Shown: positions 4,766 through 59,519 of the stretch, one piece after another | How the letters are laid out: each line of letters opens with the position of its first letter | Position numbering within the stretch: position 1 is the stretch's first letter | Assembly: GCF_028641065.1 (NCBI RefSeq) | Contig: NC_073388.1 | Coordinates: forward strand, 24,056,001 to 24,120,000 | Direction of reading: 5' to 3' | Source of the DNA: Leucoraja erinacea | Lineage: Eukaryota | Length of the DNA stretch: 64,000 nt | Position numbers and translations under genes: made by a program | Notes under the pieces: generated by a model | Told to the model about the DNA's origin: nothing | Database searches by the model: none | Seen by the model: the letters and a program-made list of their open reading frames with translations, nothing else

Positions 4766-5023
4766 GCTGATGCTGGTTTATAAAAAAGACGACACAAAGT
4801 GCTGGAGTAACTCAATGGGACAGGCTGCATCCCTGGTGAACATGAATAGGTGATATTTCGGGACTGATATTTCATATGTATGGACACAACATATAGATTA
4901 GCTCACTACACCTGCGGAGATATAAAGCTGACGGGTATAAAGTTGTCTGAAGAGTGGTCCCAACGTCACTTACTCATCTTCTCCAGGGATGATGCCTGAC
5001 CCACTGAGTTACTCCAGCACTTT
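4766..5023. mobile_element. Fold-back pair of Penelope-derived terminal repeats enclosing a SCOC 3'UTR copy
   Basis: Inverted arms (aaagtgctggagtaactc ... gagttactccagcacttt). The spacer 4863-4938 matches 3330-3405 at 67/76 nt. Confidence 0.8.
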
Positions 5024-5872
5024 ATGCATAATGTTTCAACACAGTTACCTTTTATTAGAACAGAATTTCTGACAAAGGTTATAGGGAGCTGAAACATTAA
5101 CCCTGTCACGTTTACCTATTCGCAGTGTGAAGTGATCAAGCCCATGAGCTACGAGGCAGGTGCTTAGATGGCCACATTCTGTTGCGTGTCTGAATATTTA
5201 AGGAAAATCTCTTTCTACAAATACTGCCTGAACTTTCTAAACATTTCCACCATCTTCATTTTATTTAATATGGGAGTTAGAGCAGACAAGATGCAGGTGA
5301 CATTTGGAATGGCGAGGAAGCAATTTGGTTATAATACAGACATGCAGTGAAGTGAGCATAAAAAGGGAATGAAGGAGTGAGAGAGAATGACTGCAGAGAA
5401 AGAGAACACAATGAGAATAAAAAAGAGAGAGAAAAAAGTAGCAGAAAACAGAGCAACATTCAAAAAAAGCAATATAAAGAGAGAAAAGGGAAACGTTAAA
5501 CTGGCAAAAGCAATCAGTACAAAAAGGGTTGTGAAAGAGTGGAGAGCAGAAACACCAGCTTACAAAAATATTATGGCACCAAAAGGCAGACAGAGAAAAA
5601 TGCAAAGATTTATAAATCAGTAAAGAAATAAAATTGAAACTAGCATTGAAAAAAGAAGAAAAAATAACTCAAATCCAGAAATAAAGATAAGTTAACAGAA
5701 GAAATAAAGGTCAACCAGCAAAGAGGTAAATATCATGAGAGAAATATGAAACTGAGAAGGCTCAATACCAAAGAATAGAGGATCCATCAGGGAAAAGGGT
5801 GAGGGGGGGGGGGCACAATGGAAGGCAAAAATCCTTATTTACTTTTAAACTGAGGTGGTAACAAATAATCAC

Positions 5873-5956
5873 CTTCGAGTGTGTGCTGCAGTTCCAAAAC
5901 CTGGTTTATTAGCCTTGTCTTCTCCTCCAGCTCCTCTTGATTTTCAAAATCTGTTC
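5873..5956 (-). CDS. SCOC: SCOC-family protein, coding exon 3
   Basis: (G)TDFENQEELEEKTRLINQVLELQHTLE; 84 nt, phase 1-1; AG at 5958-57, GT at 5872-71. Confidence 0.95.
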
Positions 5957-6304
5957 CTTTAATGATGGAAAAACAAGCAAGCAGATAACAGTGTGAAACA
6001 GTTAGCTTGAAACAATTCAAGCAGTAAGTCTCAGTGCAGGGAAACCCCTCTCTCGCCAATGTTCTCAACACAATATGAAGTAAGATGACATTAATCCACA
6101 CATGACGATGCAGATGAAACTGGAGCAATTCTTCTCTGTCATGTGATGCCCAACAGGAAGACCCACTGCTCCACCAGTGGAAGACATTAACATTCTGGGA
6201 CATGGTTCCATTTTTCAGCCCAAAAGGCCAGTAGAATCTATTTCCCAAAATAATGACATGAGTTTGAGCAACATTTTACATCTGTCGAGAAATCTGGTTC
6301 TAAG

Positions 6305-6541
6305 AAGACACAAAGTGCTGGAGTAGCTTGTGAAGTCGGGCAGCATCCCTGGAAAACATAAATAGGCAGTAGCGGACTGGCCAGGGTGTCCGATGGCAAG
6401 TGGGCCCCTGATGAAGTGGGCCCCCTATATCAAGTGGGCCCTTGATGAAGTGGGCCCCCTTTGTCTCCTGGCAACCAATATTTTTAGACCCAGTCCGCCA
6501 CTGTAAATAGGTGACGTTCAGGGCAAGATCCTTCTTCAGAC
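6305..6541 (-). mobile_element. Penelope-derived terminal repeat, interrupted by a MITE
   Basis: gacacaaagtgctggagta...ggtgacgttcagggcaagatccttcttcagac; same family as the other hammerhead-bearing copies. Confidence 0.7.
6367..6503. mobile_element. 137-bp hAT-type MITE
   Basis: 14-bp TIRs cagtagcggactgg / ccagtccgccactg with 1 mismatch. Perfect 8-bp TSD taaatagg (6359-66, 6504-11). Four internal aagtgggccc motifs. Confidence 0.85.
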
Positions 6542-6599
6542 GGGTCTTTTTTTGGTTACGTCAGCTTCTTTCTTGTCAGTTACATTGAACAGTCCTTAT

Positions 6600-6830
6600 T
6601 TTGGGCGTACACCAGCCCTATCTTCCATCTCTTTCTCAGCTGCATCAATGACTGCATCAAGGCTGCCTCCTGCACCCATGCAGGGCTCATGAATTTCATT
6701 AACATCACCATTAACTTCCACCCTGACCTCAAATTCATCTAGGCTATCTCTGACACTTGCTACCCTTCCTTGATCTTTCTATTGCTATTACTGGGACAAA
6801 CTATCAGCTGACATCTATTATAAACCTTCA
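6600..6830 (+). mobile_element. Penelope-like retroelement RT fragment (decayed)
   Basis: Translates LFLSCINDCIKAASCTHAGLMNFINITINFHPDLKF*...PFLDLSI...DIYYKP, a decayed version of the Penelope RT YIDD / FHP.LKFT / PFLD / YYKP blocks. Confidence 0.7.
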
Positions 6831-7064
6831 ATAATCTTACTACATTTTCACTGTTTCTAATCATGATTTGATCAGTGGTCTGTTTATGAAACCACACACA
6901 GCACATTATTCCAGATCATTTATGAAGCCTTGATGGTCACAATCCTCCTCCCAGTATGTTTGCCATTTCAATGCATTCCCCATTTCATGGCATCCAATCT
7001 ATCCTAACAAACTCCCACAACTGATATTTTCAGTTGCTGCCAATGGGATCCTCAGTAAAATCGA

Positions 7065-7350
7065 AACACAAGGAACTGCAAATGCTGGAATCTTGTGGAG
7101 TGCTGGAGTAACTCAGCAGATCAGACAACATTCCTGGATGACAATGGATGGATGATATGTTAGGTCTGGGCCATTCTTCAGACTCATCTGAGAGAAGAGT
7201 AGAGCTTCTTCAAAGTAGGCATACTTTGAGGAGAGTTCATCGTGGTGCAGTTAAATTTGAGATACAGGAAACTGCAGATGCTGGAATCCAACACAATGTG
7301 CTAGAAAAATTCAATGACTCTGGGGGACAATGGGTAGGTGATGTTTCAGG
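7065..7350 (-). mobile_element. Two degenerate Penelope-derived terminal-repeat copies
   Basis: ggaactgca(a/g)atgctggaatc ... ttcttcag occurs twice (about 7065-7185 and 7262-7350). Confidence 0.6.
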
Positions 7351-7734
7351 TTGGGACCCTTCTTCAGTAAATATGTAATTGAAATTTTGGTTAAGCGTTT
7401 TTTGATTGTCACTCACAGATAGGTAGAAGTGAGAGTTGTCTCTTCAGACCCTTGCGACTGTTCTACCACTCATTTAGATCAGTACCTCCTTCTACCCGAC
7501 CTCCATCTCCATCTCCCCACAGTGTTTCAGTAACATTAATTGCTTTCCATGATAAAATAAAAGACCTCCAGTCCTGAAATGTTTAATTGGCCCAGAATGT
7601 GGGAATGGGACATTTAGATGGACATTTAGACGACGTTCCTACACTTCTGTGGATCCCTATTAGCAACAACTCTCACCACACCACCACCGTGGTCATCACA
7701 ACCGCGATCACCCCCCCTACCCTCTGCTCTATCA

Positions 7735-7900
7735 CCGCAGGTTATAGAGTGATACAGTGTGGAAACAGGCCCTTCGGCTCAACTTGCCCACATCGGCCAA
7801 CACCAGCCACACTAGTCCCACCTGCCGGCGTTTGATCCATATCCTTCCAAACCTGTCCTATCCATGTACCTGCCTAACTGTTTCTTAAATGTTGAGATAG
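7735..7900 (-). mobile_element. CR1 3'-tail fragment
   Basis: Closely similar to 52670-52830 (ggaaacaggcc...cctatccatgtacctg). Confidence 0.7.
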
Positions 7901-8149
7901 TATTGGAGACGCTGGTGAAAATGTACATTTAATGTTCGTAGCACTGATTATATCGAGCCTGGTAACGAAAAGGAATAATTCATTTCCACAGTCTTTGCAT
8001 TTTATTAGCAATTTCGCCCTGCATTTGCAGTGGAAGTAATGGCTCCCTATTCCCCTCTAAGACACACGACGGCGAGAGCAGGGCTCCACCTAATGCCGTG
8101 TGTAACCACTCAATGACCACAACAACTAAACGCTGGCGTTGTCAGCTAC

Positions 8150-8236
8150 CTTCTGTATCTGCATTCATCTTGTCATCAGCCTCCTGTGGAATTTTCATTC
8201 GATGGCGTCGCCTTGAAGCTCCTCGGAATCGACAAT
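8150..8236 (-). CDS. SCOC: SCOC-family protein, exon 2 (ATGs at 8198 and 8168)
   Basis: Ends MKIPQEADDKMNADTE(G), compare human SCOC MMNADMD. Acceptor tttatttcag|8236; donor gaag|gtagct. Confidence 0.85.
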
Positions 8237-8599
8237 CTGAAATAAACAAAATAAATAAAGCGAGGAATCGGTGCGCAGGGTCCAGGTCTCATACAAAGCC
8301 TCCTTTTATGCTGCCCGTGCTTTCGCCCCACACGGCGCGGAGACAAATGGTTGTGCGAGTCCAGAGTCGCTGCCCATCCGGCCCCTGAGACACTGCAGCC
8401 CACGTCCACTCGACATTTGCAGAGATTAATGTCGGTTGAGTGAAGTAACTGCCGAGATTCACCATCAACAGCAAATTCGGGAAGATAGCGGGCAAAATGT
8501 ACACACCACCCCCAACCTCCACGTCCCATCGCCGCAATCTGTTATCAACGGAGCAGGCATCCGGCGTGATGCTGGTCCAAGCCGCGCCCTGGGTCCATG

Positions 8600-8950
8600 T
8601 CTCTGCACCTTCCCCTGCTCCTCTGTCACCCCATCTACCCCGGTCCCAGTCTGTGAATCTTCCCCAGATCCATGCTTGCACCTTACCCCGCTCATCCCCA
8701 TCTACCCCGGGCATTGCACCTGTCACCACACCTTCCCCCAGCTCTCTGTCTGTGCACCATCCCCGGCTCCATGTCTGTGCATCTTTCCGGAGACCCTGTC
8801 ACCCCACCATTCCCGACTCAATGTCTGAGCATCACCCCCGGGTCCCTTTCACCCCCGGCTCCCCCGGCTCCCTCTCTGTACATCATCCCCGGGTCCACGC
8901 CTGCACCATCCACGCCTGTGCATCATCCTCGGGTCTGCATCCAATGATGC
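8600..8950. repeat. C-rich degenerate tandem/low-complexity repeat in SCOC intron 1
   Basis: Recurrent tgcaccatccccgg / ccatgtctgtgc units. Confidence 0.55.
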
Positions 8951-8999
8951 ATTGCATGATGCTCGAATGCAGGGGTGCACGTTGTCCCGCTTACTCGGT

Positions 9000-9260
9000 C
9001 TTGCTTTCTGTTCTGCCCCATAGCTGATGGAGCGGCTTGGTCCCCCCCTGCCCGGGAAAGTGAGAGCGGAGGAGGACTTGCTTACCTTCGCTGCGCTCAG
9101 CTCCTGCCTGCTTGCTGTCTGTGGCGGCGAGCGCTGGGGACATGCGTCAGCCCGCAGTGCGGAGAGGCGGTGCAGAGGCAGAGCCGCCCTCTCGTCTACC
9201 CACACACCGCTGCCTCCTTCCGCCAGAGACACCGCCATCGGCCCCCTTACACCACTGCCA
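9000..9260 (-). promoter_or_regulatory. CpG-rich first-exon/promoter region of SCOC
   Basis: Local GC and CpG enrichment in otherwise AT-rich DNA, surrounding the putative exon 1. Confidence 0.5.
9086..9143 (-). CDS. SCOC: Putative SCOC exon 1 (N-terminal extension MSPALAATDSKQAGAERSE)
   Basis: ATG at 9143; strong donor gaag|gtaagc after 9086; phase 1 joins exon 2 in frame with no stop; GC-rich context. Confidence 0.6.
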
Positions 9261-9807: not shown

Positions 9808-12097
9808 CTGGGTCACTCTGATCATTGCCTAGTTCACCTTATTCCGACCTACAGGCAGAAACTAAAAGCTGCTAAGCCTGTGGTCAGAACAACGAAAAGG
9901 TGGATAAGCGAGGGCATTGAGAACCTACAATCGTGCTTTGACTGCAAGGATTGGAATGTGTTCAGGGAAGCAACCACAAGCCTCGATGAGTATACGGACA
10001 CTGTATCATCATATGTCAGCTTTTGTGAGGACAGTTGCATTCCAACTAAGACCCGGACATGGTTCAACAACAACAAGCCCTGGTTCACTGCAGAACTCAG
10101 ACAGCTCCGACGGTCTAAAGAGGAGGCCTACAGGAGCGGGGATGCAGACCTCTACAGGCAGGCCAAGTACAAGCTGAGAAGAGGAATCAGAGCTGCCAAG
10201 GAAAGGTATCTGAGACGTTGAGGTACAAGTTCTCAGCTAGTGACTCTTCTTCAGTTTGGAAGGGTCTGCAAGAAATTACCAGTTACAGGAAGAAAGCCCC
10301 CCGCTCTTTGGACAATAGTCAGCTGACCAACGACCTGAATGAGTTTTACTGCAGGTTTGAAAATCAGAAACGTAACCCTGGTACCCCCCCCTCCCCCTCC
10401 CCCTCCCCAACCAACACAGCCAGACCCCAGTCTGCAAAGACTGGGCCCTTCTACACCCACCCCCCTCCAATCACCACTTCACACCCAATCACCCACACCC
10501 TCTGTGCTGCACAATATCACATCCAATATCAACAACAAATATAGAGGAGGTGGAGAGGCTTTTCAGAAGACAAAAAAGCCAGAAATCTCCAGGCCCTGAC
10601 AATGTTTCCCCCTCTATTCTTAAACTCTGTGCCAAACAGCTGGCACCGGTCTATACAGACATTTTCAATCAGTCCCTGCAAACATGTACTGTCCCTGCCT
10701 GCTTCAAAGTCTCCACTATTGTCCCTGTACCCAAAAAGGCAAGGATTACTTGTCTTAATGACCACAGGCCTGTCGCACTGACCTCTGTAGTCATGAAGAC
10801 ACTCGAAAGGCTTGTGCTGGCCAAGCTGAATAATATCACAATTCCCCTGCTGGATCCTATGCAGTTTGCATATCGGGCCAATAGATCAGTGGATGATGCA
10901 GTCAACCTGGGCCTTCATCCTACAGCACCTAGACCGCCAGGGGACCTATGCGAGGATACTGTTTGTTGATTTTAGCTCTGCATTTAACACCATTGTGCCA
11001 GAGCTACTACACCCCAAACTTTCCGAGTTGACTGTGCCTGAACCCCTCTGTCGGTGGATCACCAGCTTTCTGACAGACAGGAAGCAGTATGTGAGGCTGG
11101 GAAAGCACATCTCGGACCCGCAAACACTCAGCATGGGAGCACCGCAAGGCTGCGTACTCTCTCCTCTCCACCAAAGACTGCACCACCACAGACACCTCTG
11201 TCAAGCTTCTCAAGTTTGCGGACAACACAACCCTGATTGGACTTATCCAGGATGGGGAGGAATCTGCCTACAGACAGGAAGTGTCACAGCTGACTTCCTG
11301 GTGCCATCGCAACAACCTGGGGCTCAATGCTCTTAAGACAGTGGAATTGATTTTAGACTTTGGGAGAGCTCCCCCTCCCCCCACTCACCATCAACAACAC
11401 CACAGTCACATCTGTGGAGTCTTTTAAGTTCCTGGGAACCATCATCTCCAAGGACCTTAAGTGGGGGGCTACCATCGACTCCACAGTCAAAAAAGCATAA
11501 CAGGGAATGTATTTCCTACGGCAGCTGAGGAATCACAATCTGCCACAGGCAATGATGGTCCAATTCTACACGGCCATCGTAGAGTCTGTTCTCACCTTCT
11601 CCATCATGGTCTGGTTTGGCTCAGCCACCAAGCACGACACCTGGAGGCTGTAGCGAATTGTCCGATCAACAGAGGTTATTGGCTGCAATCTTCTCTCCAT
11701 TGATGAACTGTACACTGCAAGGGCCAGGAAGCCAGCGGGCAAGATCATCTCTGTCTCACCCTGGCCACAAACTCTTTGAATCACTTCCCTCTGGAAGGCG
11801 ACTCCGGACTGTCAAAGCTGCCACAGCCAGACATAAAAACAGTTTTTATCCACGAGTAGTTGCTCTACTCAACAGCCAAAAATCTGTAGCCTCCCTTTGA
11901 TCTGGTATTTTGTTGGTTCACATGCTTGATCAATGGTGTTTTATCATTAATGTTTTATTATTATTAATGTTTAGTGTTTTCTGAGTCATTCATAACTGTC
12001 ACTGTATGTCATGTTGTTACTTGTGGGCGGAGCACCAAGGCAAATTCTTTGTATGTGAATACTTTGCCAATAAACTTACTTACTTTACTTACTTACC
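9808..12097 (+). mobile_element. 5'-truncated Rex1/Babar-type LINE, frameshifted
   Basis: Endonuclease end GHSDH, NNKPWF, KSPGPDNV, RPVALTSVVMK, QFAYRANRSVDDA, FVDFSSAFNTI, GAPQGCVLSP, KFAD; 3' aataaa followed by a (ctta)n tail. Confidence 0.9.
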
Positions 12098-13959
12098 ACT
12101 GATCTCTTTATTTTCATCCCTGCTTCCTCACATCTTTATTCATTATCAGCTCTTCTTTACAGTACTGATGCATCTATCATCATCACCTCATCCTAACACT
12201 AAATGTTTTGGTCCATTTGTGATATATGAATTAAAAGTTTATTGCAACAATTCTTTGATTCTTTGACTGCCCAAAGTTCAGTACTAATTCTTACACATTT
12301 TGACTGAAAGTTAAGTTGCCCAGTAGAAGCATTCACATGAAGAATTTTGGCATCTAACAGCAACAACACCTTCCATACTACTGTCTATTTGTTTGCACTG
12401 AATCTTTCCATATCACCCTTTCCCATATATCCACTTTACTTGTTATTACAAAAGGATAAGGTTGGATTTAATTTGTAACGAGAAAAACACTTTTTTTTTT
12501 TTAAACACTTCTGTTTGGCAATTATGTCTTTCCATTAATGGACAACAATCACATTCTTATCTTATCAAGGGAAGTAGGGAAAAACTACCCAAAATGATGT
12601 GCCAATTATCTTTTTCATTTCCATTAACATGAATGTTTCTGAATCACATCTCAATTTTCATAATTTAACATATAAAAATTAGCTGTTTTGAAACGATAAC
12701 ATTTACTATTTTCGCAGATGCCACTTAATCTACTGAGGATTCACATCACTTTGTCCTTATTGCAGATTTCCACCCTTTGTCACGTTTACTTGCTTTTCAT
12801 ACTAAAATGGTCTTTATTTTTATGACGTTTTGGGAGAAACAAGAGACACTTTGTTAATTATGAACAACCCCTTACAATCACATACTGAAACAAAAGACAG
12901 ATTAATTTATCTGGCAGTAATTAAAGGTTTATTTAATCACTCTTCAATGAATAAATCCAATTAAAATGCTATTTTAATAACATTCATTTCCATTTAATCT
13001 AATCCAGTCAGTAACCACGACAACCAGCTAAAATTTTGAAAGCAAGATCAGCTGGTAACCACAATAGATTTACGTGATTACTTTTGAAACCCAGTATACA
13101 TTTTTTTTTACATTTTTACTCATTTGAGGGATAAGAATGCTAGCTTTTATTATCCACACCTAATTACCCCATGACCTGAATGTTTTGCTAACCCATTTCA
13201 AAGGGCAGGAAAGTCAACAATCAATGGGTCAGATCAAAGTATATACAAATTTAAAGAGTTTGAAATTTTTATACGACATCTAAATTAGATCAGCATCTTC
13301 CTGATTCAACAGTTCAGGTTCAAGAGGCTGAACATTTTACTGTTATGCCGATGTAGAACAGTTGCATCAATCTCATCTTGTAAAATGTATGCTGCAGGCA
13401 TAGAAAGTAGAGCCCAAAGAACTGTAAATCCTTAAAGCCTTGACACTATCTTGAAAGTGAAGTATCCTACATTTACTAATGTGGCATACTGATTATAGGT
13501 TTTAACACAGAGATATTATGCCTTATCCTACACTGGAAATTACAGAATTTGCTACTTTGAGCTTTTAATTTCAGAATCTGAACTCTAAAATAAGCAGTCA
13601 GCATGCCTCAAAAAACAAGTAATTGGAGGTATACTCAAGCAATGATGTGCGTTAACCTGTGATGGGATATGGTTTCATAAGCCCCTTTGAATTTCCATGA
13701 AGCTATCAGTTGCAGTTATTTGAGATTTCTGTTGAAAACACACCCAAGTTCTGCACCAAGTAGGTACATTTTGTTAATGATCTTTGTGGCTGGTGTGGGG
13801 TGAAATAATGCATGTTTAAAGTTTAATGAAAAGAGCAATTTATTAGCAAGCCGCAAAATAACTGCCGAAGGCCATTTGTCAGTGAGATACAGGCAGGAAG
13901 TGTTTATCTGTGGTGACTATAGCAAATCAACCAATTCAATATCTGGATTGTAGGGGAAA

Positions 13960-14540
13960 CAAAGAACTTCAGATGCTGGTTTACAAAAAAAAAAAAGAAA
14001 GTGCTGGAGTAACTCAGCGGGTAAAGCAGCATCTCTAGAGAACATGAATAGATATTTCGGGTCAGGGCCCTTCTTCAGACTGATTGTGATGGGGGAGAAG
14101 GCAGGAAGAGAGGAGAGGCAGTGAGAGGTGGATACAGGTGGTGGTGAGAGGGTGTGATTGGCAGATAGTTGGACAAAAAACAGATGAAAAGACAAAAGGT
14201 ATGTGAATAGGATAAAAGAGGTGTGAATTGTGAACCCAGAATAAGCAACACGTGGAAGGGGAGGGCAAGGGGAGAAATGGGTGCGAGTCCAGTTGGGGCA
14301 CAGGGAAGAGATGGGAAGGATGGAAGGGAATAAAATAAACTAAACATTGTGTTATTTGTAGGTCAGTTACCTAGAATTAGAGAATTCATTGCTCATACCC
14401 TTAGGTTGGAAGCTAGCAAAGCAGAATATGAAGTGCAGTTTGCATGTGGCCTCACTCTAGCAAGGGAGGAGGGTCGGATCAAAAATGTCAGTATGGGATG
14501 GGAAAAGGTACAACCGGGAGATCCATCAGGCCTTGGCAGG
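13960..14540 (-). mobile_element. Penelope-like element 3' end: GIY-YIG C-terminal relic followed by the hammerhead-bearing terminal repeat
   Basis: Minus strand reads C*SEATCKLHFIFCFASFQPKGMSNEFSNSR*, then a pyrimidine-rich spacer, then cagtctgaagaagggccctgacccgaaatatc and the shared repeat. Confidence 0.75.
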
Positions 14541-16009
14541 CTAAGATCTGGATTGCAGGTTATGGTCACTATCATACAATGCAAGGTCAAAGAAAAATTG
14601 GATATCTCTAAAGCTTGTTCCATCCAGCATTATATTTTATATATAGTCCATGTCTCAATATTAATAGCACCAATAGAATGCTCAGAGATGGTTTAACATA
14701 GGATATTGTATTTTCTTCTTTAGTTTCAATACAAACTTAAGAATTAGGAAACACTGTTATTTTAATTTAAACAAGTTAGTGATACACACATATATACTAT
14801 GAAACATGGCAAATCTTATAAAATGCTTTGTATTTCACGTATCCATTCTGACTTTACCTTCATCAGTCCAGAGACATTATTAGACCATTAGCAACACCTG
14901 ATAGATCTGTTCGAATGAAAGTGGTGCTTAAGCACTTGACTACATGCATTTGTTTGGCAGTATCTGGGTTAGGATGTTATAAAGTATGTGTGGTAAATTA
15001 ATTTTGAACCTATAAACATTGTTTCTGCCCCTGGTTAGTCACATGTCACAATTGTTAATGGTGCAACAACTTTAAACTAACAATTAGTGCTTAAAACTAT
15101 TGTTAAAATGTAAAGAATATACAAGTGTAACTGAGTGACAGGTTTTCACACACAGTGATCCTCACAGTAGTGCCAGTACTATGTTATCGTTTACAGATGT
15201 ACCAGATGTTGTTGGAATATCATCCACCAATAATGCTGCTTCATTTTGACTCCTCACAGAACAACTTTGGGATTCCTTTGTTCCTGGAGACTTCTTCACT
15301 ATTATATGCAAGAAGCATTGTCCTTTAAAACAAATCAGAATTTATCACCAATCTTCACAAGATAAATCTTAGAATTGTACACCTTTATTACCGTCTACGT
15401 GTCTCCCTTTAACTCCAAACTTTCTGGAGGTCATAGTAAACAAACTCCCTCAAGCAGATTAAATGACATCCTTGTGGCTTTGGAGTTTACTCTGATTAAA
15501 TTATCTTTCCACTATTTTTGTTCCCGGTTAAATTGAATGAGACTCGATTTGTCTTAAAGCAACAACAAACGCTTCCATTTGTTAAATGTAAATAAATTAG
15601 GGGTTCTCATGCTTTGCTGCAAACAATGAGATTTCCATTGTAACCGGTGTGGAAGCGAACTACTATTTTACACAATGTTTCACTCAGGTAATTGATGGGC
15701 TTTTTTTTTTTTTAATTCTTAACAAAATTTCCAGATGCTACTTTTTTTCTCCTTTGTTCTCAGGTCTGCACATCAGACCTGTCAAAATGTGTTGTGGGCT
15801 TCTCAGAGTTATCCATCAATTCAGTCACATTCTCATTCATATCCTCAATAACTTTAATTTGGCTGTGATTTCTTGCCATCCCATTCTCATCAACTGTATC
15901 ATCTGAGTATACTCAGTGGGTTTGTAATCCATAATGTCGTGCATGGCATAAATTAGATTTTCACAGGTGAGGCACTAAGAGTTTAAGACAATCTCTATTG
16001 TTTACCACC

Positions 16010-16490: not shown

Positions 16491-16663
16491 CAGTCCGAAG
16501 AAGGGTCTCGACCCAAAATGTCACTTATTCCATCAGTCTGAAGAAGGGTCTTGACCCGAAACGTCACCTATTCCTTCGCTCTATAGATGCTGCCTCACCA
16601 GCTGAGTTTCTCCAGCATTTTTGACTACTTTCGATTTTTCCAGCATTTGCAGTTCTTTCTTAA
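16491..16663 (+). mobile_element. Penelope-derived repeat with two tandem hammerhead motifs
   Basis: Motifs at 16495-16522 (mutated) and 16538-16565 (intact core). 17-bp flanking direct repeat with 2 mismatches (16474-90, 16664-80). Confidence 0.8.
16538..16565 (+). ncRNA. Minimal type I hammerhead ribozyme motif (Penelope type)
   Basis: CUGAAGA-A-GGGUC uu GACCC-GAAA-CG-UC. Core intact with palindromic ACGU helix III; helix I very short. Activity not shown. Confidence 0.6.
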
Positions 16664-18504
16664 ATAAATATAATGCAATTTGTGTGTCTTTATAAAGTAA
16701 TTTAATTGTGCTTCCATTGTCAGTTTTTTGACAAATAATCAAATGTTAATGTGCAAGTATGGTAGGTGAAACAATTTTATGTTATCAGATTGCTTAACAT
16801 TGCAAGTAGGAGATAGGCCCCATCTAATCGATATCTTGTATCATTATAAATACTTTTGCATTGTTACAGTATCTCTGCCACATTTGCCTCTACTGTCACT
16901 GAACTGTGATGTTATTCAAGATAATCATTGTAATCAATGGATGGGCAAATGCCCTCTCGCTCAGTATCATTGAGTGAATTAGAGACTCTCCAACACAAAG
17001 CAAGGAGATTTTCAAACCTTGACCACACCTTGTGGAAAGGACAAACTGCAGAATAGATTGTCAAAGCCATGAGTATACTTTTCAGGGAATACAAGTTAGG
17101 GGCAGTTTCTATATCTCCTCAATCTCTGTCTAACTACAGATAAAACAGGTAGAACTGGTGAAGATGGGGAGAGACTGCAAGGTGGTCAGCTTTGAATGTT
17201 AACCATGACACCTCTGAACAAGTTTGTCAGAACTGGCCTATTCTGTCGAACTGGAAAGGCTGGTTATCTGAAATTGTTAAATTCTGTGTTAAATCCTGAG
17301 AGCTGAAATAAGCCAGGTTGGAGATAGATGCTGTTTCCTGAGATGACGTTGGGCTGCATTGGAATAGTTGGAGAACATAAGCTTGGGCCCATGCAAGCTC
17401 CCACAACTGCATGCATGAGCACAAGCTATGCTTTTTACTTTGTGGGATGCATGGAGCAGTGCTTACTTCAGCATCACCACTATGTTGCCTGTATTGGTGC
17501 TCCTTCTTACTCTTGTACTGCGTCTCACAGTTCCAGCATTATTTTTTAGCCTTTTCTGCTCTCTCCTCATTCAGCTCCACCAGTTTACTCCAACTCCAGA
17601 CAGCTCCGCTATGATTAACAAGCCCTAACCACTTTCACTCAACCTACACCATCACCTTTAGGGTAACTAAATCTTCTTTGATTCTCACCATATTAAAGAC
17701 ATCTCTTTGCTCTCTCAACCTCTTCCCTTTGCAAATTAAAACATTTAAAAGGAAATATATTTGGTAATATACCATAGTTATATACGGAAGTACGTAAAAT
17801 ATTTTTAAATGATATTTATCTGGGGTAAGTGTCAATTTCAGACCAAGCACAAAGGATATGGGGTGGGAAAAGGCAGGTGGAAATAGGTCATCAATCATTG
17901 AAAGTTTGGACAAGCTTATGAGACAAAGTGACCCTTTCCTACGGCTTTCTTATATCCTTACAAAATCTATCGTCTTTTAATTAAGTTTTCAACCCTGATA
18001 ATGACATGAAAACCATGTCAGAGCTGTCAGGCATGGCTGGGAGTCAGAAAATCTATGAATAATTATTTTCCCTCATAGTCAAGCAAATTATTAGATCAAA
18101 AAAATACATTATAAAGAAAATACTTCCTTTGGGCTCTTTCTGGGGCTCATTCTTCACTTACAGCAGTATTTTGCTTTCATGTCGACTACCAAGTCATTAC
18201 GTTCAACTATTAATTCTGCCCAGAACTTTTTTTTTTTAATTCCTCAGGGAATACATTTTACAGTATCCTGCATCAGAAACCAAGTACAATTTTAATTTGA
18301 TGGTATGTTCATTTCCCCACAAATGTTGGGAAATGTGGGTTGCTTTGAAGTGAACATGGGTTTAAAAAGTAGAAGAAACCTGCACCTCAACAGAATCAAA
18401 TGGTTTTGGATTAAGCAATGGAAATATTTCCTTCACTTCCGCATTTCACTTGCTTGATATGGTTCGTAAGCATAGGCAAGTTTGAAAAGTACTTTACAGG
18501 AAAT

Positions 18505-19630
18505 CATAAAGTTATATAGCCCTTCAGACCAACTATTTCATGCTGACCAAGATGCCCCATCTAAGCTAGTACCATTTACCCACATTTGGCTCATATCCAT
18601 CTAACCTTTTTCCATCCAAGTACCTGTCCCAGTGTCTTTTAAATATTGCTATTGTACCAGCCTCAACTACCTCCTCTAGCAGCTCATTGCATACAGTATA
18701 TCCACCACCATTTGAGTGTAAAGGGGAATTCTGAATGCAGTACTTAGTTACCTGAAAATGACATCACAGGTAGATAGAGTGGTAAAGGCAGCTTTCAGTA
18801 CACTGGCCTTCATCAGCCAGTGTATTTCACATAGAAAATAGACACAAAAAGCTGGAGTAACTCCAGGACAGGCAGCATGTCTGGAGAGGAGGGAAGGGTG
18901 ACATTTCAAGTCGAGACCCATCCTCAGACGTCTGTCTTCATTTTAAACCAGCATCTGCAGTTTCTTCTTACACATATTCCGTAGACTTATCATCACCTGG
19001 TGGGGTCACAACATCGGAGGCCTGGATCGCCTCAGCACAGAGGGAGAGCAAGGAGGGAAGAGACAAGGACCTTGGGACTTTTTGTGTGTGTTTTTGTTAT
19101 TTATTCTATGTTATGACTGTAGGCTAAACCATTTTGTTGCACTGAAAAGTGCAATGACAATAAAATTGAATCTAATCTAATAAAAATTGGAATGTTATGT
19201 TACAGTTGTACAAGATGTTGAGGAGGACACATTTGGAGTAATATGTTCAGTTTTGGTCACCAAGTTATAGAACGAATGTCATTAAGCTGGAAGGAATGCA
19301 GAGAGGATTAATGAGGATGTTGCCAGGACTCATGGGCCTGAGCTGCAGGGCGAGGTTGGGCAAGGCAGGACTTTATTCCTTGGAGCACAGGAGGTGTTCT
19401 TATAGAGGTATAGCAAATCATGAGAGGAACCAGAGGGGCAACATTTTCCACAGCAGTTGGTGGGTATATAGAACGAGCCTACCAGAGGAGATAGTTGATG
19501 CAGGTACTAAAACAACATTTAAAAGACACTTGCACAGGAGAGGTTAATATGGGCCAAACATGGGCAGGTGGGATCGCCATAGATGGGGCATCTTGGTCAG
19601 TGTGGACAAATGTTTCCGTGCTGTATGACT
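18505..19630. mobile_element. Nested cluster: CR1 fragments on both strands, Penelope-derived repeat (18838-18975), SINE-like 3' fragment (18985-19180)
   Basis: CR1 motifs QRGLMRMLPGL...GLYSLE. 18985-19180 matches 51885-52085. Confidence 0.7.
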
Positions 19631-20053
19631 GGCAGTACCCAGTCTACATTGGGAAAGATAAAATCACCTACTATGACAACCCTTGCAAGTCTCGCAGCTG
19701 CCTGCAATCTTGCAGCATATTTTTGCTTTGAATTCCTGGTGACTATTTGGGGGCCTATAATACATTTCCAACAAGGTTGGAACAATTCCCTTTTTATTCC
19801 TCTGCTCCACCCATACAGCCTCATTGGAAGAACCGTGGATAATGTCATCTCAGACCACTGCAATGTTACTCTGCACAATCTCAGCCCTTTTCCTACCCGT
19901 GTCATTTGTGGCAACATGCACAATCACTTCTGGTAGCTTCCCCTTGTCCTGGAGAATGTTTTTAGTTTAGTTTATGTCACATGTATCGCTTTTGTTGCAT
20001 GCTAGGTCAGCAGAAAGAGAAAGCATGATTACAATCAAGCCATACAGTGTATA

Positions 20054-21125: not shown

Positions 21126-21127
21126 TA

Positions 21128-26673: not shown

Positions 26674-28039
26674 CTAAAGGGGTTTAGGAAAAAGCAGAAT
26701 TAATTCAAAATGAGAAACCGTCCCCCAAAAAAATCCACTAAAATAAATAAATCCACTTCCTGCAGTCTTTTTTTTTTTACTGTTTTGCAGAATTTGTATA
26801 CCTTATGGATATAGTGTATAATTTGTTTTTATGTGTTATCTCCGTCTATGTGCTTGTTTTGGTGTACAAGCAAGATTTTCAGTATACTTGTATCTCACCA
26901 GACTTGTGCACATGACAATAAACACACCAAACTGACTTGAGAAACATGCAATCATTGAAATCAGAAGCAGAAGTGAAAGCAGGAAGAGGCCATGTCCTTC
27001 TTTGGTCCCAAATCAGCACACTCCCAATTTCAGTCTTGCTATCACAGCAATTCCCAATGGAAACAGGGAGGGCTTTATTACCCAAGACTATTTCTACCCA
27101 CTATCAATCATTTTGAGAACAACATTTGTAAAGTGACAGAAAGAGAAAAGGTAGGTACTCATAAAATCATTAAACTATATCATGAATATATAAACAAGAA
27201 AGGAAATATGTAGATGTAAAAAACATAGAGATGGAATGTGCCCACCAAAATAAAAAAGATATAAAAAAGGCAAGATATCAAGAAATGAAAAGTTCATTCT
27301 ATAGTTTCTGAAGAAGGGTTTTGAAATAGGTTCATGAAAGATGAAGGGTTTCTGAAGAAGGGTTGTGGCCCCAAAAGATACATTTGTCCCACCTATTCGT
27401 CCTTCGCTCCATGGATTATTGCTGCTGCACCCGCTGAGTTTTCTCAGCTTCAAAAGCAAGAGCATTTTTGTGATACAACGGTGATTGGCCCTCATGAAAG
27501 ATACATTTGTCCCATTAATAATGCTCGTCCCATAAAGAATTGATGGATTATTGCAGCAATAATTTTGAACTACTCTTATGCACAATTTTCTCAGCTTCAA
27601 AAGCAAGAAGTCCATAGTGAACTTCTACCGCTTTCGAGTACCAACTGCAACAGTATGGTATTGGTCCGACCAAAGCAATTAACTTTTTCACCGTGCCATT
27701 GTAAAGCAAGTTTTTCAGCATCGCCAACTTTGAGGACTTTTACCCTCCTACCATCCGTTACAGGTGAAAAAGGGGAAAGATCATGGCGGGGTCATGACCT
27801 CGGTGACTAAGAATAATTATTTTTTTTATTCAAATCGTTTGCTATGTCGCTCTTCAAGGGAGATGCTAAATGCATTTCGTGAGTACACTGACAGGACATT
27901 AAAAAAAATAAAAAAAAAATTAACTTCTTGTTTTTAATGTTTAATATTAGTGGATTAAATTTAGATTAGAATGATAAGCACATCGTGAGCATGAAGGCAT
28001 AAAAAAAAAAAAAATTACTGTTTCAATATTAGCGGATTA

Positions 28040-29454: not shown

Positions 29455-29689
29455 CTGAAAAATGAGAAAATAAGTCACTAAGAAACATTCACTGTCAAAG
29501 GACAAAGAGGTTTTATTTTAAAATATTCGATTGAAAAATCATTGTGTCAACTATATCAACAGTTTGAAGGTAGGAAACAGGGTTGTGGTATTGTGTTAAC
29601 TCAAATTTTTTTGAGAAGGGATTGTTCACTCTAGCCACGTCTTGACTTGTTCCACATACCTGCCATCCTCTGGAAATGTTCTCCCAATA

Positions 29690-30520
29690 GGTCCCTTTTC
29701 CTTTTCTCCAAAGATGCTTCCTGTCCCGCTGAGTTACTCCAGCTTTGTGTCTATCTTGTGGTGTTGGGTTGCTTTTCAGGCTGGATGCTTGCAACGTGAT
29801 GTAACCCAAGGATCAGTGCTGGGTCCACTGTTGCTCGTTGTTTATATTAATGATTGGTATGTAAATGCAAGCGTCATGGTTATGAAGTTTGTATATGACA
29901 CTAACATTTGTTGGATAATGGATGGTGAGAAAGATTATAACAGTATTTTAATCAATTTGTCCAATGGACCAATGAATGGCAGGAATTGTTTAATACATGC
30001 GAGATATTGCATTTTGCATTGTCGGACACACCAGGGAAAGACGTACAGGAAATCTTAGGGTCCTAGATAGTTAAAGAGCAGAGAGGTCTAGAGGTGCAGG
30101 TACGTAGTTCCATGAAGATAAGGACAAGGTGAAGATGACAAGGTTTGGCATGCTCGTCTTCAATCAGTTGGAACGTCATATTAAAGCTGTATAATTTGTT
30201 GGTACGCCCACTTTTCGAATGTGGTGTACAATTCTGGTTGCATTGCCTAGGATGGACGTCAATATATTGGAAGGGATGCAAAATAAATGAGGATGTTAAG
30301 AGGCCCAAAGGCTTCGCATAAGGAGGCTAGATAAGCTGGACCTTTTTTTCCCTGGAGCCTTAGAGATAGGAAAAAGCACAAGGACATAGATACGGTGAAC
30401 AGCCACAGTATTTTCCCCAGGATAGGGTAGTAAAAAACTGGAGAGCATAGGTTTAAGGCGAGATGGGAAACATCTAAAAGGGACCTGTAGGGAAAATACG
30501 TATGTGGAACAAATCATGAC
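29690..30520 (+). mobile_element. Penelope-repeat fragment (29690-29755) and decayed CR1 RT
   Basis: gctgagttactccagc; VTQGSVLGPLL..VYIND. Confidence 0.65.
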
Positions 30521-33155: not shown

Positions 33156-33248
33156 TCTGAAGAAGGGTCTCGACCCAAAACGTCACCTATTCCTTCCCTC
33201 CATAGATGCTGCCTCACCCACTGAGTTTCTCCAGCATTTTTGTCTACG
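33156..33248 (+). mobile_element. Penelope-derived repeat with hammerhead motif (G12 to A)
   Basis: ctgaagaagggtctcgacccaaaacgtc...ctgagtttctccagcatttttgtctac. Confidence 0.8.
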
Positions 33249-38224: not shown

Positions 38225-38322
38225 CTGGGATTTAAATAACATGATGATTAGCCCAAAAAACAGACACTGTTACAGCCCAAGAAAAAAAATAGATTAATTC
38301 CTTTATCCACCCTTCCTAAGTA

Positions 38323-39604: not shown

Positions 39605-39696
39605 GGTAGACATAAATGCAAGGGAAACTCAGCGGGTGAGGCAGCATCTATGGAGCAAAGGAATAGGTGACATTTCGGGTTGAGACCCTTCTTCAG
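39605..39696 (-). mobile_element. Penelope-derived repeat with 12-bp flanking duplication
   Basis: Ends at gacccttcttcag; atatatatttaa at 39593-604 and 39697-708. Confidence 0.8.
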
Positions 39697-40504: not shown

Positions 40505-40654
<150 letters not shown>

Positions 40655-41682: not shown

Positions 41683-42105
41683 GTGTAGGAAGGAACTGTA
41701 GATGCTGGTTTACACCGAAGATAGACACAAAATGCTGGAGTAACTCAGTGGGTCGGGCACCATATCTGGAGAGAAGAAATGAGAAGGAATGAGTGACGTT
41801 TCGGGTCGAGACTCTTCTTCAGACTGTCTACATCCTAGTTCTTAACCAGTAGTGTTTCAGGTTACAATAAGTATCTAGATAGTCGCAAAATACTGGAACA
41901 ACTCAGCGGAACAGACAGCATCTCCCGAGAGAAGGAATGGGCGACGAATGGGTTCGAGACCCTTCTTGAAACTGTCTGAAGGGTCTTGACCCGAAACGTC
42001 GCCCATTCCTTCTCTCCAGAGATGCTGCCTGTCCTGCTGAGTTACTCCAGCTTGTTTGCGCCTATGTTCGGTGTGTTAACCAGCATCTACAGTTCCTTCC
42101 TGCAT
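41683..42105. mobile_element. Cluster of three Penelope-derived repeats (two minus, one plus) forming a fold-back in RagA/B intron 1
   Basis: Arms about 41683-41826(-), 41878-41974(-) and 41975-42105(+); hammerhead motif 41795-41822(-). Confidence 0.8.
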
Positions 42106-42199
42106 ATAATAAAGTGTCTACCTTCATTCTGTTGTCCTGGTAACCCCGCTTTAACCTCCCTTCCCTGCCCTTCCCTTCCCCCAAGCTGCTGGGTCGTAC

Positions 42200-48207: not shown

Positions 48208-48433
48208 TCTGAAGAAGGGTTTCGACCCGAAACGTCGCCCATTCCTTCCCTCCAGAGATGCTGCCTATCCCGCTTTTTGTTTCTATTCTTATTTGCAAAC
48301 CTGTTGTACCTGTGTTCCTTAACAGCAAGTGACTTATTATGAAGATAGACACAAAAAGCTGGAGTAACTCAGCGGGGCAGGCAGCATCTCTGGAGAGAAG
48401 GAATGGGTGACGTTTCGGGTCGAGACCCCTCAA
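48208..48433. mobile_element. Two convergent Penelope-derived repeats
   Basis: 48208-48275(+) and 48342-48433(-); the second is flanked by acttattatg (48332-41, 48434-43). Confidence 0.8.
48209..48236 (+). ncRNA. Minimal hammerhead ribozyme motif with UUCG-capped helix II
   Basis: CUGAAGA-A-GGGU-UUCG-ACCC-GAAA-CG-UC. Confidence 0.6.
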
Positions 48434-48864: not shown

Positions 48865-50610
48865 TCAATGTAACTGAAGGCTGATAAATCCCCAGGGCCT
48901 GTTGATTTGCATCCTAGGGTACTTAAGAAGATGGCTCTAGAAATTGTGGATGCATTGGTGATATTTTTTTCCAATGTTCTATAGATTCAGGATCAGTTCC
49001 TGTGGATTGGAGGGTAGCTAATGAGAGAGAGAGAAAACAGGGACTTATAGACCAGTTAGCCTGACATCGGTGGTGGGGAAGATGCTGGAGTCGATTATAA
49101 AAGATGAAATAGCGGCACACTTGGATAGCAGTAACAGGATCGGTCCGAGTCAGAATGGATTTACGAAGGGGAAATCATGCTTGACTAATCTTCTGGTTTT
49201 TTTTTTGTGGATGTAAAAGGAGAGCAAGTGGATGTAGTGTACCTGGAGTTTCAGAAGGCCTTTGATAAGGTCCCACTTGGGAGATTAGTGGGGCAAAATT
49301 AGAATGCATGGTATTGGGGGTAGGGTACTGACATGGATAGAAAATTGGTTGGCAGACAAGAAACAAAGAGTAGGGATTAACAGGTCCCTTTCAGAATGGC
49401 AGGCAGTGACTAGTGGGGTACTGCAAGGCTCGGTGCTGGGACCGCAGCAATTTACAATATACATCAATGATTTGGATGAAGGGATTCAAAGTAACATTAG
49501 CAAATTTGCAGATGACACAAAGCTGGGTGGCAGTGTGAACTGTGAGGAGGATGCTATGAGGATGTAGGGTGACTTGGACAGGTTGGGTGAGTGGGCAGAT
49601 GCAGTTTAATGTAGATAAATGTAAGGTTACCCACTTTGGTGGCAAGAACAGGAAGGCATATTATCTGAATGGTGTCAAGTTAGGAAAAGGGGAAGTACAA
49701 TGAGATCTGGGTGTCTTTGTACATCAGTCACTGAAAGTAAGCATGCAGGTACAACAGGCAGTGAAGAAAGCTAATGTCATGTTGGCCTTCAAAACAAGAG
49801 GGGTTGAGTATAGGAGCAAAGCGGTCCTTCTGCAGTTGTACAGAGCCCTAGTGAGACCACATCTGGAGTATTGTGTGCAGTTTTGGTCTAAAATCTGAAT
49901 CTGAATCTTGCTATTGACGGAGTGCAGCGTAGGTTCACGGGGTTAACTCCCGGGATGGCTGGACTGTCATATGTTGAAAGAATGGAGCTTGTATACACTG
50001 GAATTTAAAAGGATGAAAGGGGATCATGTGACTATTAAGGGATTGGACATGCTAGAGGCAGGAAACATGATCCCGATGTTGGGGGATGCAGAAACAGAGG
50101 CCACAGTTTAAGAATAAAAGGTAGGCCATTTAGAATGGAGATGAGGAAAAAAATTTCACCCAGAGAGTTGTGAATCTGTGGAATAGATCTGTAGATAGAG
50201 CTCTTAAAGATACTGGCGTTTATAAGGTTCAGGGGGGACCTCATTAAAATGTACAGAATAATGAAAGGCATAGAGTGGATGTGGAAAGGATGTTTCCACT
50301 GATGGGGGCATCTAGGACCAGAGGTCATAACCTCAGAATTCAAGAGTGCTCTTTTAGAAAGGAGGTAAGGAGGAACTTCTTTAGTCAGAGGGTAGTTAAT
50401 CTGTGGAACTCATTGCCACAGAGGAAAGTGGAGGCCAAGATGGTGGATATTTTTAAGGCAGAGATAGACAAATTCTTGATTAGAACGGGTGTCAAGGGTT
50501 GTGGGGAGAAGGCAGGAAAATGGGATTAGGAGGCAGAGATCAGCCATGATTGAATGGCGAGTAGACTCAATGGGCCGAATGGCCTAATTCTACTATAACA
50601 TGTGAAATGA
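48865..50610 (+). mobile_element. CR1 LINE RT region and 3' end, decayed
   Basis: DKSPGP, YRPVSLTSVVGK, SGVLQGSVLGP, SKFADDTKLGG, FFSQRVVNLWNSLP. Confidence 0.9.
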
Positions 50611-56809: not shown

Positions 56810-57271
56810 ATTGTTCCAGTATTAACTAATAAATCTTTACATCTTTCCTATTCTTACCACTTTGAAGAGGTAATTGCACGTATTTGTTTACTGAATGAAC
56901 TCCCATTTTCCATGTTCCTAAACCCCATTTTACTTTCTGAAAAAGCAAAGAGAATAATTATTTAGTTTCATGATGGATACAGGCTCAGTGTGGCAAGACC
57001 AAGTGTGTGGAAACTATCTTATAACACTAAAGTCTTGCTTTAATTGTGAAGTGAAGCAAATGTGCACAACAATGACTTATTCACTTTGGATAATTCCTGA
57101 TGCTTAGATGTTCCAAATCTTCATTTGTAGTTACTAACAAATGTTTTCTTGTACTTCTGTTTAGCCTCTTCCCCCTCTCTCCCCTAGAATATCTGTATTT
57201 GTTTAACTGATATCTGAATATGTCTGGTGCAGACAGGTTATTGAAGGCAAACCCTATCGTTACTATTCCAG

Positions 57272-57448
57272 AATTAACGTATTCTGATTTGGTGATGCGT
57301 TTTGATTATGTTTGGCTACGGGATCATTGTCGCTCTGCATCATGTTTCAACTCAAAAACTAATCAACGGAGCTTAGATACTGCCCAAGTGGATTTGGCCA
57401 TCAAGCCAGCAAACATACGTTCAGATAATGATGCAATCTACATAACTT
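57272..57448 (+). CDS. TMLHE: TMLHE coding exon 2
   Basis: (E)LTYSDLVMRFDYVWLRDHCRSASCFNSKTNQRSLDTA...; 177 nt. Confidence 0.96.
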
Positions 57449-57632
57449 GTGAGTTGTTCTTTCAATCTACATTATAATTGTTTTCAGCTCTATTTTTCCA
57501 TTACTGGAAAGGCTTCATCCTCTCTCCGGAATGAAATAAAACTGAAATTCGTACATAATTAGTACTTTGATTTGTAATACTAGGTCTTCATGCTTTTAAC
57601 TTAATTTGGTATCTTTTCTGTCTCATTTGCAG

Positions 57633-57909
57633 GGCCAGATAATCATATGACTAAGTTTGGCTTGTCATGGTTGGCAAAACATTCTTTTGAAGGCCAGAAC
57701 CAGACTGTTCAAAAGCGCATCCTGTGGAATGCTGCTGTTTATAACAAAGCAAAAATGCCTTATGTTACTTATAATGCTGTAATGGAATCAGACAAGGAAC
57801 TAAAAACATTCTTGGAGGCCTTCCTTCTATATGGAGTCTCTTTTATTGAAGAAGTTCCTGCGAGCATTGAGGCAACAGAAGCCATAGCATTGCGTATTGG
57901 CTTGATCAG
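57633..57909 (+). CDS. TMLHE: TMLHE coding exon 3
   Basis: (W)PDNHMTKFGLSWL...RILWNA...FLLYG...RIGLI(R); 277 nt. Confidence 0.96.
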
Positions 57910-58969
57910 GTGAAGTTTTTGAAGGATTTTAATTATTTGTTGAAGTTGCCTTTGAAGATTTAAGTCCCAAGATGATCATCATACAAACAATAGCCAGTTG
58001 TGGCATATTTAATACTGTAACTCAGAAGGCATATGCAGTTGCTATAGTATTAAGTTTGGTTTTATTCCCACAATTATGTCGATATTCAGTAATATATACT
58101 ATAATAATATCTATTATGTAGATATTCCATTTGTTAATGTATGAAGACACTATTTGCTACTTGCCAAGTATTGTGGGAGAAATTAGATATGAAGTCAATA
58201 AATCACAATTTCAAGCACTTGTGAATTAGCCCTTTGAGTTATAAATTTCCACTGTTCTGCACCTTTTTTTTTAAATTCATTGTGCCCTTGCCTGTTCTTT
58301 AAAACTTTCCAAGTAAACCAACTCCACTGCTGTTTAACCATGTTCCCATTAATACACTTATGTCTTTATATGGTTTTCTTGTACATCACTTTGAATCAGA
58401 ATCTCAAATCCTTTTGTGCATTGTATCCAGATTGCATCCACTTGCTAACATTGTTTTAATTCCTTGACTTGCTGGGTCCTTTTCCCACCCTTTTCTGGAT
58501 CTGTGTCTCCAGCTTTGGGATAGTCTACCTCCAAATATCCATTTTGTGTCCAAAATTCCATAATTATAATAACTATACGTCTCTCACCATGAGTCCTGTA
58601 AGAATTCCATTCTATTCTCCCAATTCTTGTCTCTCATAACGGCTCTCCTGGCATGACTTTCTGCAGAGTTGCCTCTGAGGGGTCTTCCTTAACTGTGGCT
58701 TCCTTCTACCATAATTCCGAACCATTGACCACATCTCGTCTATTTCCTACATCTCATCACACCCCTTCAGAGCAAGGACAGGGTCTTCAGTTTGTTGCCA
58801 TCTACTCTATAATTGTCTGTATTCAACAAACTTAAAATTACTGCTGTTCTATTTTTGTTCTTTGTCATGTCCTTTATCCATAAGTATGCTCCAAATCCGA
58901 GGAATATCACCTGTTTGCCCTACTGCCCCTCTGCACCATTCTCCAACAATGGGTTTGAATACCTGAATA

Positions 58970-59142
58970 CAGTCAACCCTTGCAACAACAGAGAACAGTG
59001 GGAGGAATGGTGTCCATTATTGCTGATTGCCTGCTATAACCGAGTGTTGGGGGGTTGTGTAATGTTTAACCCAAGGCCAGGAGGGAAGAAGCGTGGCATT
59101 GGGGGGGGATAAACAAGCGTGAATTCTTACGAGGGTTTACTG
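58970..59142. mobile_element. Tigger/pogo-like MITE
   Basis: TA-cagtcaaccct...agggtttactg-TA. Confidence 0.6.
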
Positions 59143-59350
59143 TATGCACAAGCATCTTCCTGTACAAATTTTACTTGGTGGTTGGGAGAAAATATATCAC
59201 TGCCTTGCCTTTGTTTATTTTATTATTTTCCAGTTTACTTTAAGAATCATTTGAAGTTTCCGACTCCATCCTTGATTCTATAATTTACCTATGATTTTAC
59301 TTTGCAACAATAGCTTCTGACTTTTTTTAAATACAAGTTTTTCTGAATTG

Positions 59351-59519
59351 TTTAAGAAGGAACTGCAGATGCTGCAAAATCGAAGGTAGACAAAAATGCT
59401 GGAGAAACTCAGCGGGTGAGGCAGTCTGAAGAAGGGTCTCGACCCGAAACGTTGCCTATTTCCTTCGCTCCATAGATGCTGCCTCACCCGCTGAGTTTCT
59501 CCAGCATTTTTATCTACCT
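59351..59519. mobile_element. Fold-back Penelope-derived insertion, hammerhead motif in the loop, 15-bp TSD
   Basis: 41-bp inverted arms (59384-424 and 59479-519, 1 mismatch); motif 59426-59453; agtttttctgaattg at 59336-50 and 59520-34. Confidence 0.88.

Follow-up and report, generated by a model that had tools for sequence, protein, structure and literature searches.

Hammerhead-bearing short repeats of a Neptune-type Penelope-like element in Leucoraja erinacea share two 3' sites and a 5' boundary in front of the hammerhead motif

Hammerhead ribozyme motifs are known from Penelope-like elements (PLEs) of metazoans, and self-cleavage of the minimal form described by Cervera and De la Pena (2014; PMC4209133) is weak and confined to multimers. 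In PAc, a PLE of the anole (Frangieh et al., 2024; PMC11167929), two internal reverse-transcription starts delimit a tail, the RNA must extend ~55 nt past these starts, and uncut RNA is the substrate, with product length following the template's 5' end. The portions of that paper covered here leave open how end repeats and full-length copies arise from an internal start; our statements on other cited papers likewise refer to the portions covered. In this work, we examined a 64,000-nt stretch of the Leucoraja erinacea genome (contig NC_073388.1, positions 24,056,001 to 24,120,000 of the forward strand, assembly GCF_028641065.1; hereafter the window), which holds many copies of a short hammerhead-bearing repeat, together with a genome sample of 120 stretches of 10 kb at round coordinates (1.2 Mb). 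Positions in the repeat are numbered from the C of CUGA (C3) as 0, so that the predicted hammerhead cut lies between +27 and +28.

The repeat is the hammerhead-bearing pseudo-long terminal repeat (pLTR) of an abundant autonomous Neptune-type PLE, the type being assigned from linker motifs. The Penelope origin proposed in a preliminary description of the window is supported by near-complete parent elements with a reverse transcriptase, a CxxC linker, and a GIY-YIG end, and a protein search returned 59,299 candidates, 150 of which were scored at at least 93% identity. At locus L118, a 727-aa open frame has a YIDD motif (Pfam RVT_1, E = 9e-7, 29.2 bits, under the cut-off of 29.6); the C-terminus of the parent open reading frame (ORF) carries a LIYCIRC...LIYIGE motif (Pfam GIY-YIG, E = 0.0095, under the curated cut-off), and CxxC motifs were read from the translation in the linker between the two domains. 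A zinc-finger-like motif at this place is a Neptune trait, also found in Nematis (PMC8557442). On the 5' side of the element, three loci (L182, L184, and L189) show a pLTR, the tail, and then an ATG at ~+154, with partial-tandem pLTRs, and the hammerhead of the parent sits 115-130 nt past the stop codon; inverted partners are seen in the head-to-head pairs described below. Since this arrangement of RT/GIY-YIG ORF, pLTR, and tail is that of endonuclease-positive (EN+) PLEs, the repeat is identified as the pLTR. The reported joining of the repeat to a GIY-YIG-like ORF end also holds in the window, where the minus strand of 14330-14540 encodes a disrupted GIY-YIG C-terminus that shares the orientation of the hammerhead. 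The 1.2 Mb sample contains 559 repeat matches, or about one million fragments genome-wide when extrapolated to 2.19 Gb.

Some further features of the ORF were observed. Its N-terminal region (L179, L182, and L184) contains variable tandem repeats, rich in proline, whose number is not the same in all copies. The ORF start (L184:487-520; window 7190-7234, minus strand) reads as a strong splice donor, AAG/GTATG, that overlaps the ATG and is conserved across diverged subfamilies; this donor and the pyrimidine tract plus CAG before the hammerhead frame the whole ORF like an intron.

The 3' ends of the copies had been described as variable; they are bimodal rather than scattered. Among 30 long young copies, 27 end at one of two sites (14 at +90 to +96 and 13 at +124 to +129), and the matching bins hold 109 and 95 of 329 unselected copies, versus 62 between the two. 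Loose read ends pile up at the same two sites, which lie ~35 nt apart, and the tail is present in ~40% of copies. The interval between the sites is the published optional tail, and by analogy with the literature (PMC11167929) the sites would be two reverse-transcription starts. Nor is the polarity of the family the reverse of LINE (long interspersed nuclear element) 5' truncation, as had been proposed: the 5' ends of long copies vary widely (-804 to -2410), and scattered 5' ends together with target duplications indicate ordinary polarity.

The 5' ends were placed in 463 unselected copies that have the 3' part, drawn from the 1.2 Mb (481 were examined, and 18 without an alignment to the 3' part were dropped). 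They cluster at the motif, as the preliminary description had it: 267 of the 463 reach +4, and 177 of these stop by -8, that is, within 13 nt. The stop rate between +4 and -8 is 0.084 per nt, compared with 0.003-0.028 in nine other bins, so that the rate at the hammerhead front is roughly tenfold that elsewhere, whereas simulated uniform truncation of real copies (1,889 trials) put the bias of the end caller at the boundary at just 1.24-fold. Retention drops from G(-2) to about -6. Beyond -6, the sequence upstream of the short class has background composition, which argues that short copies are not decayed long copies. The boundary is independent of the tail (74/184 versus 33/83, P = 1.0), and among copies that hold the region after the tail, 20 of the 31 that reach +4 stop between -12 and +4.

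An extra G often precedes the start. Among local copies that start at GTCTGA, 30 of 46 have it, where the background is 37%; the first 100 genome matches listed show it 61 times, against 28 times in 100 listed at an internal control site, although the two sets of matches leave out different first letters, which weakens the comparison. Copying of the cap, untemplated addition, and realignment onto helix II are possible sources of this G, and each of these origins would place the enzyme at a template boundary. As a separate observation, 5' junctions at L039:430 (minus strand), L094:1013 (minus strand), and window 27290-27352 show the opening bases of the repeat in short reiterations, and target DNA copied in fold-back form, which suggests slippage at a template end or repair-type joining.

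Composite insertions carry further information on the template. In 73 head-to-head pairs, neither partner passes -12 in 66 cases, one does in four, and both do in three. Among loci chosen for long copies, L108, L119, and L129 have head-to-head partners that reach -176 to -201 (L119 is also among the 73 pairs; the numbers are small and the loci partly selected). This pattern suggests a single class of template for both complementary DNAs (cDNAs) of a pair. Of 93 loci that include the region after the tail, 61 have a nearby junction at which the sequence returns to a second pLTR; 51 of these junctions leave the internal region between +170 and +300, partly because loci were selected by a motif at +143 to +169. 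Where the second repeat starts at or inside the hammerhead (n = 19), the two repeats start within 5 nt of each other in 13 inserts, three of them away from the boundary hotspot, including L222 (+41/+38) and L224 (+49/+47). Linkers are present at 12 of 23 hotspot junctions versus 6 of 31 upstream ones (P = 0.019); hotspot linkers are mostly A/G-rich (A-rich or ending in G), and upstream junctions otherwise overlap by microhomology. The two-repeat inserts, the A-rich linkers, and the extra Gs suggest that the boundary is a physical RNA 5' end. The window insert at 7062-7367 has the two-repeat form with an extra G and is a candidate product of run-off and jump. Apart from these, four loci (L227, L245, L250, and L233) hold multi-pass inserts with units of ~150-320 nt, in which the same junction is crossed two or more times and which resemble nascent retrozyme-type tandem units.

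Taking together the parent element, the two 3' sites, the 5' pile-up, the target duplications, the head-to-head pairs, and the two-repeat inserts, all of which are observed, we consider it probable that the short repeats are pLTR copies left by reverse transcription that was initiated 90-130 nt within the RNA and ran off at the RNA 5' end, which would be located 2-7 nt ahead of the hammerhead core. The element RNA would begin 2-7 nt before CUGA, most likely with a capped start at TCAGTC, which resembles the initiator consensus. A rotifer pLTR has a similar initiator-like motif (PMC3846280). The reverse transcriptase would prime 90-130 nt from this RNA 5' end and run off, and the cDNA would usually be joined to the target at once, leaving a dead-end short copy. 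Sometimes both DNA strands would be primed, giving a head-to-head pair, and sometimes the enzyme would jump to an RNA 3' end and copy on, giving a two-repeat insert. Boundary-passing copies would come from tandem or circular templates, and the hammerhead would be carried along uncut, without setting the ends.

Several observations weigh against this run-off account. The boundary is graded over -2 to -7 rather than a single base, and ~17% of copies pass it and need another template, such as tandem or circular RNA. No excess of G was found before AGTCTGA starts (15/42 versus 29%), the unequal first letters noted above affect the genome comparison, and helix II (its GGGT, through realignment) or an inverted partner may have served as template for the extra G or GG. 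Agreement is predicted by every model at the hotspot, which is where ten of the 13 same-start inserts are found, and L207 and L231 (2 of 19) break the pattern. In four RNA runs, consisting of raw reads of related or same-label organisms, there was no sharp site where many molecules begin; read depth there mirrors the DNA contigs, which indicates that the reads come from passively transcribed copies. In D. virilis, moreover, the start lies ~120 nt upstream of the intron end that adjoins the hammerhead (PMC2377424, PMC4209133).

Other origins of the boundary have to be weighed against run-off at an RNA end. The RNA may continue upstream, with the reverse transcriptase stalling at the pyrimidine tract and CAG that precede the hammerhead, to which splicing factors, poly(C)-binding factors, or the protein encoded by the element would be bound. 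Such a tract, ending in CAG, lies directly upstream in all subfamilies, the D. virilis intron ends at helix I (PMC4209133), and a roadblock would fit a graded and leaky boundary. We regard it as unlikely, because a random stall should hit the partners of a pair separately, yet passing looks correlated (in few, partly selected loci); in addition, L266, L261, and L291 pass the site in the 3' repeat but stop at it in the 5' repeat, and A-rich linkers and extra Gs fit template ends. Exonuclease trimming of the RNA back to a folded or protein-protected core, from helix I to ~+260, is quite unlikely. It would account for the coincidence of the boundary with the 5' strand of helix I, for the 51 of 61 junctions at +170 to +300, and for A-rich linkers, which resemble oligoadenylated decay ends; however, the +170 to +300 cluster is partly a product of the locus selection mentioned above, a G excess is not expected from uncapped ends, and the hammerhead fold is not predicted to be stable. 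Splicing could set the boundary if the CAG before TCTGA served as acceptor and AAG/GTATG as donor, with a spliced or back-spliced hammerhead exon of ~153 nt, and both signals are conserved across diverged copies. Against this stand one exact junction and three with GT overlap genome-wide versus 424 exact unspliced motifs, the absence of such a joint among the best-supported RNA joints listed, and target duplications that adjoin the start with no exon between, which make splicing extremely unlikely as the main route. Ribozyme cleavage as the main source of the ends is scarcely conceivable: 9 of the 463 calls (six clean by eye) do fall at the cleavage position, slightly over their neighbors, but the caller is biased 1.3-fold at that position, and the main pile-up lies 30 nt upstream, with the whole core kept.

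A different question is whether the short copies form a family of their own, as the preliminary description held in calling them a non-autonomous, ribozyme-bearing family. The short copies are by-products and not a self-standing non-autonomous family, because they form no lineage of their own. Every subfamily holds both short and long copies; among 132 short and 64 long copies there is no short-only lineage or diagnostic variant, and the nearest neighbor of a short copy is short in 0.66 of cases, versus 0.67 by chance. Very high copy number, discrete length classes, and target duplications in 23 of 67 solo copies (versus 0.8% of controls) speak for a self-propagating family in which short copies are themselves transcribed and mobilized. 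We nevertheless consider such a family very unlikely: short copies have nothing of the region past the tail (from +130), and by analogy with the anole element (PMC11167929) this would make them dead ends. Only a minority of multi-unit inserts (L227 and L245) retain that region. Tandem hammerhead units, which characterize retrozymes, are likewise a minority, with direct repeats upstream of 4 of 111 short copies.

Three other candidates were examined and rejected. A splice between the end of the ORF and the hammerhead had no genome match, and inspection by eye of the match table for 97 solo copies showed no parent ORF end immediately upstream of them. Joining of host exons to the motif by splicing was ruled out by the target duplications that adjoin the start, and an RNA polymerase III transcript was ruled out on sequence, given a T4-5 run before both 3' sites.

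The minimal type I hammerhead motif proposed earlier was recovered, with the CUGANGA, GAAA, and UH core and a palindromic helix III in the majority sequence of all six copy groups. A scan against Rfam gave no hammerhead match at E<=10, so the assignment rests on reading of the core nucleotides. For a helix II with G10.1-C11.1 and a bulged base, together with the short helix I, pairs can form in 87% of cells, and the changes between subfamilies keep this pairing by wobbles on one side; a covariation test found no two-sided change and no excess of pairing over shuffles. Helix I has 2 bp, perhaps with 2 bp more beyond an internal loop, and folding prediction does not favor the hammerhead fold (z between -1.2 and +0.9). 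Within single copies, the core has decayed as much as its flanks, and CpG sites have suffered most. A core no better kept than its flanks had been named as an outcome that would speak against the earlier reading, and this is what individual copies show; it is also what neutrally decaying insertions are expected to show. The motif matches the minimal hammerhead of PMC4209133, and the RNA is possibly self-cleaving, a putative activity judged from sequence. At L182:313-455, the first bases of the hammerhead core (AAGAAGG) have complements in the tail end (CCTTCTT) and at +35 to +40, and alternative folds are possible.

In the window, a detection profile built from seven of its copies gave 22 matches at E<=0.0055, while the best match in the reversed window, used as control, had E = 3.6. 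Copies were recovered at every site named before, and extra ones were found at 27353 and 29683 (Table 1); ~16 of 20 tabled matches start within ~5 nt of CTGA according to caller values and flank reading, in line with the earlier statement that copies begin close to it. The flanking duplications, formerly given as 10-17 bp at four inserts, are real and exact, but they now number five, of 18, 15, 12, 10, and 10 bp. The composites at 41685-42117 and 59351-59519 are each enclosed by one target duplication and thus each represent a single insertion. Inside the former, ~55 bp of non-element DNA (41823-41875) is caught between two short copies. A Pfam scan, which covered 283 of 393 open stretches, found exons of three host genes, namely those for a short coiled-coil protein, a RagA-type GTPase, and a TauD/GBBH dioxygenase. 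Thus, the three genes stand, but of the insertions said to lie in introns of all three, only that at 59.4 kb is placed between exons.

Table 1. Copies of the repeat and related fragments in the 64,000-nt window.
Feature	Position	Strand	Remarks
Short pLTR copy	4766..4863	-	Starts inside hammerhead (~+17); has tail
Diverged short pLTR copy	4945..5029	+	Starts at GTCTGA
Short copy	6305..6541	-	Starts at GTCTGA; ~140 bp of other DNA inserted (6368-6505)
Broken reverse-transcriptase fragment of the same element	6555..6830	+	Head-to-head with the 6305-6541 copy; tblastn E = 1e-14
Two-repeat insert	7062..7367	-	pLTR, tail, and ORF start (to ~+193), extra G, then second pLTR from AGTCTGA with tail
5'-truncated copy	13951..14545	-	Broken GIY-YIG end, pyrimidine-rich 3' untranslated region, hammerhead (C3 at 14078), tail; 10 bp duplication (13941 and 14546)
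Tandem	16492..16666	+	Partial copy (-5 to +39), then copy from -5 to tail end
Short copy	18835..18929	-	GTCTGA to first 3' site
Diverged short copy	27351..27450	+	Profile match; absent from preliminary description
Short copy	29683..29756	+	Starts inside hammerhead; absent from preliminary description
Young short copy	33156..33248	+	C3 at 33157; 3' end at the first site; flanking repeat exact over just 7 bp
Young short copy	39605..39696	-	12 bp duplication
Composite insert of three short copies	41685..42117	Two minus, one plus	Head-to-head; 18 bp duplication (41667 and 42118)
Short copy without its 3' part	48208..48274	+	Profile match
Short copy	48342..48433	-	10 bp duplication (48332 and 48434)
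Head-to-head pair	59351..59519	Minus and plus	Minus copy from ~+50 with tail, plus copy from -4 to first 3' site; 15 bp duplication around the pair; between two exons of the TauD/GBBH-family gene

The window also contains other mobile elements. Remains of a Tc1/mariner (Sleeping Beauty-like) transposon with 523 bp inverted arms at 97% lie at 20047-22710, and two more elements with inverted arms are found at 38311-39336 (arms 87-91%) and 43079-45416 (~72%). Reverse-transcriptase fragments of other, LINE-type elements occur at 10830-11333, 31253-32518, and 49025-49564; the one at 31253-32518 forms an open frame of 422 aa, with a weak match to zf-RVT.

As an element, this PLE is ordinary, and its value is as a record of mechanism. 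The insertions point to a testable answer to the question left by the work on PAc, namely, run-off at a defined 5' end followed by a jump. If this is true, which we put forward tentatively, it would explain the rebuilding of pLTRs and the rise of retrozyme-like tandem units, and the roughly one million abortive products would record the start site. Some caution is also warranted, in that about a million such fragments should not be filed as a SINE (short interspersed nuclear element) family or as active ribozymes.

The element type, the hammerhead motif, the tail, and the inverted pairs are already published. In the literature searched, no account of the 5' boundary or of the jump was found; subscription papers, Repbase/Dfam, and supplementary figures, which were outside that scope, may show it. 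The metazoan PLE hammerheads of Cervera and De la Pena (2014; PMC4209133) share with those described here the core, the unpaired base before helix II, the palindromic helix III, and the very short helix I, as well as opposite-strand pairs and single motifs dispersed in their thousands, "probably related to truncated PLEs". The portions of that paper covered include no cartilaginous fish and no mapping of copy ends, and its 4,000-9,000 motifs per genome, which count intact motifs, are far fewer than the ~0.47 fragments per kb found here. In PAc, a Poseidon element (PMC11167929), two internal starts likewise delimit the tail, uncut RNA is used, and both DNA strands are nicked and extended; it belongs to another clade, its ORF begins inside the hammerhead rather than ~154 nt after C3, and the text portions covered describe neither a genomic 5' boundary nor an end-to-end jump. 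EN+ Neptune elements (PMC8557442, PMC3846280) have in common with ours the reverse transcriptase with C-terminal GIY-YIG, the zinc-finger-like linker, direct or inverted pLTRs, partial tandems, an inverted 5' copy, the optional 30-40 bp tail, solo pLTRs, and target duplications. Head-to-head pairs are attributed there to self-priming on an antisense template, and some solo pLTRs to recombination (PMC3846280), whereas the pairs found here have two separate start points and one shared target duplication. Lastly, non-LTR retrozymes (bioRxiv 10.64898/2026.07.22.740005) are also pLTR-derived and carry type I hammerheads, and L227 and L245 would fit among them; retrozymes are defined by tandem units, whereas most copies in this genome are solo or head-to-head.

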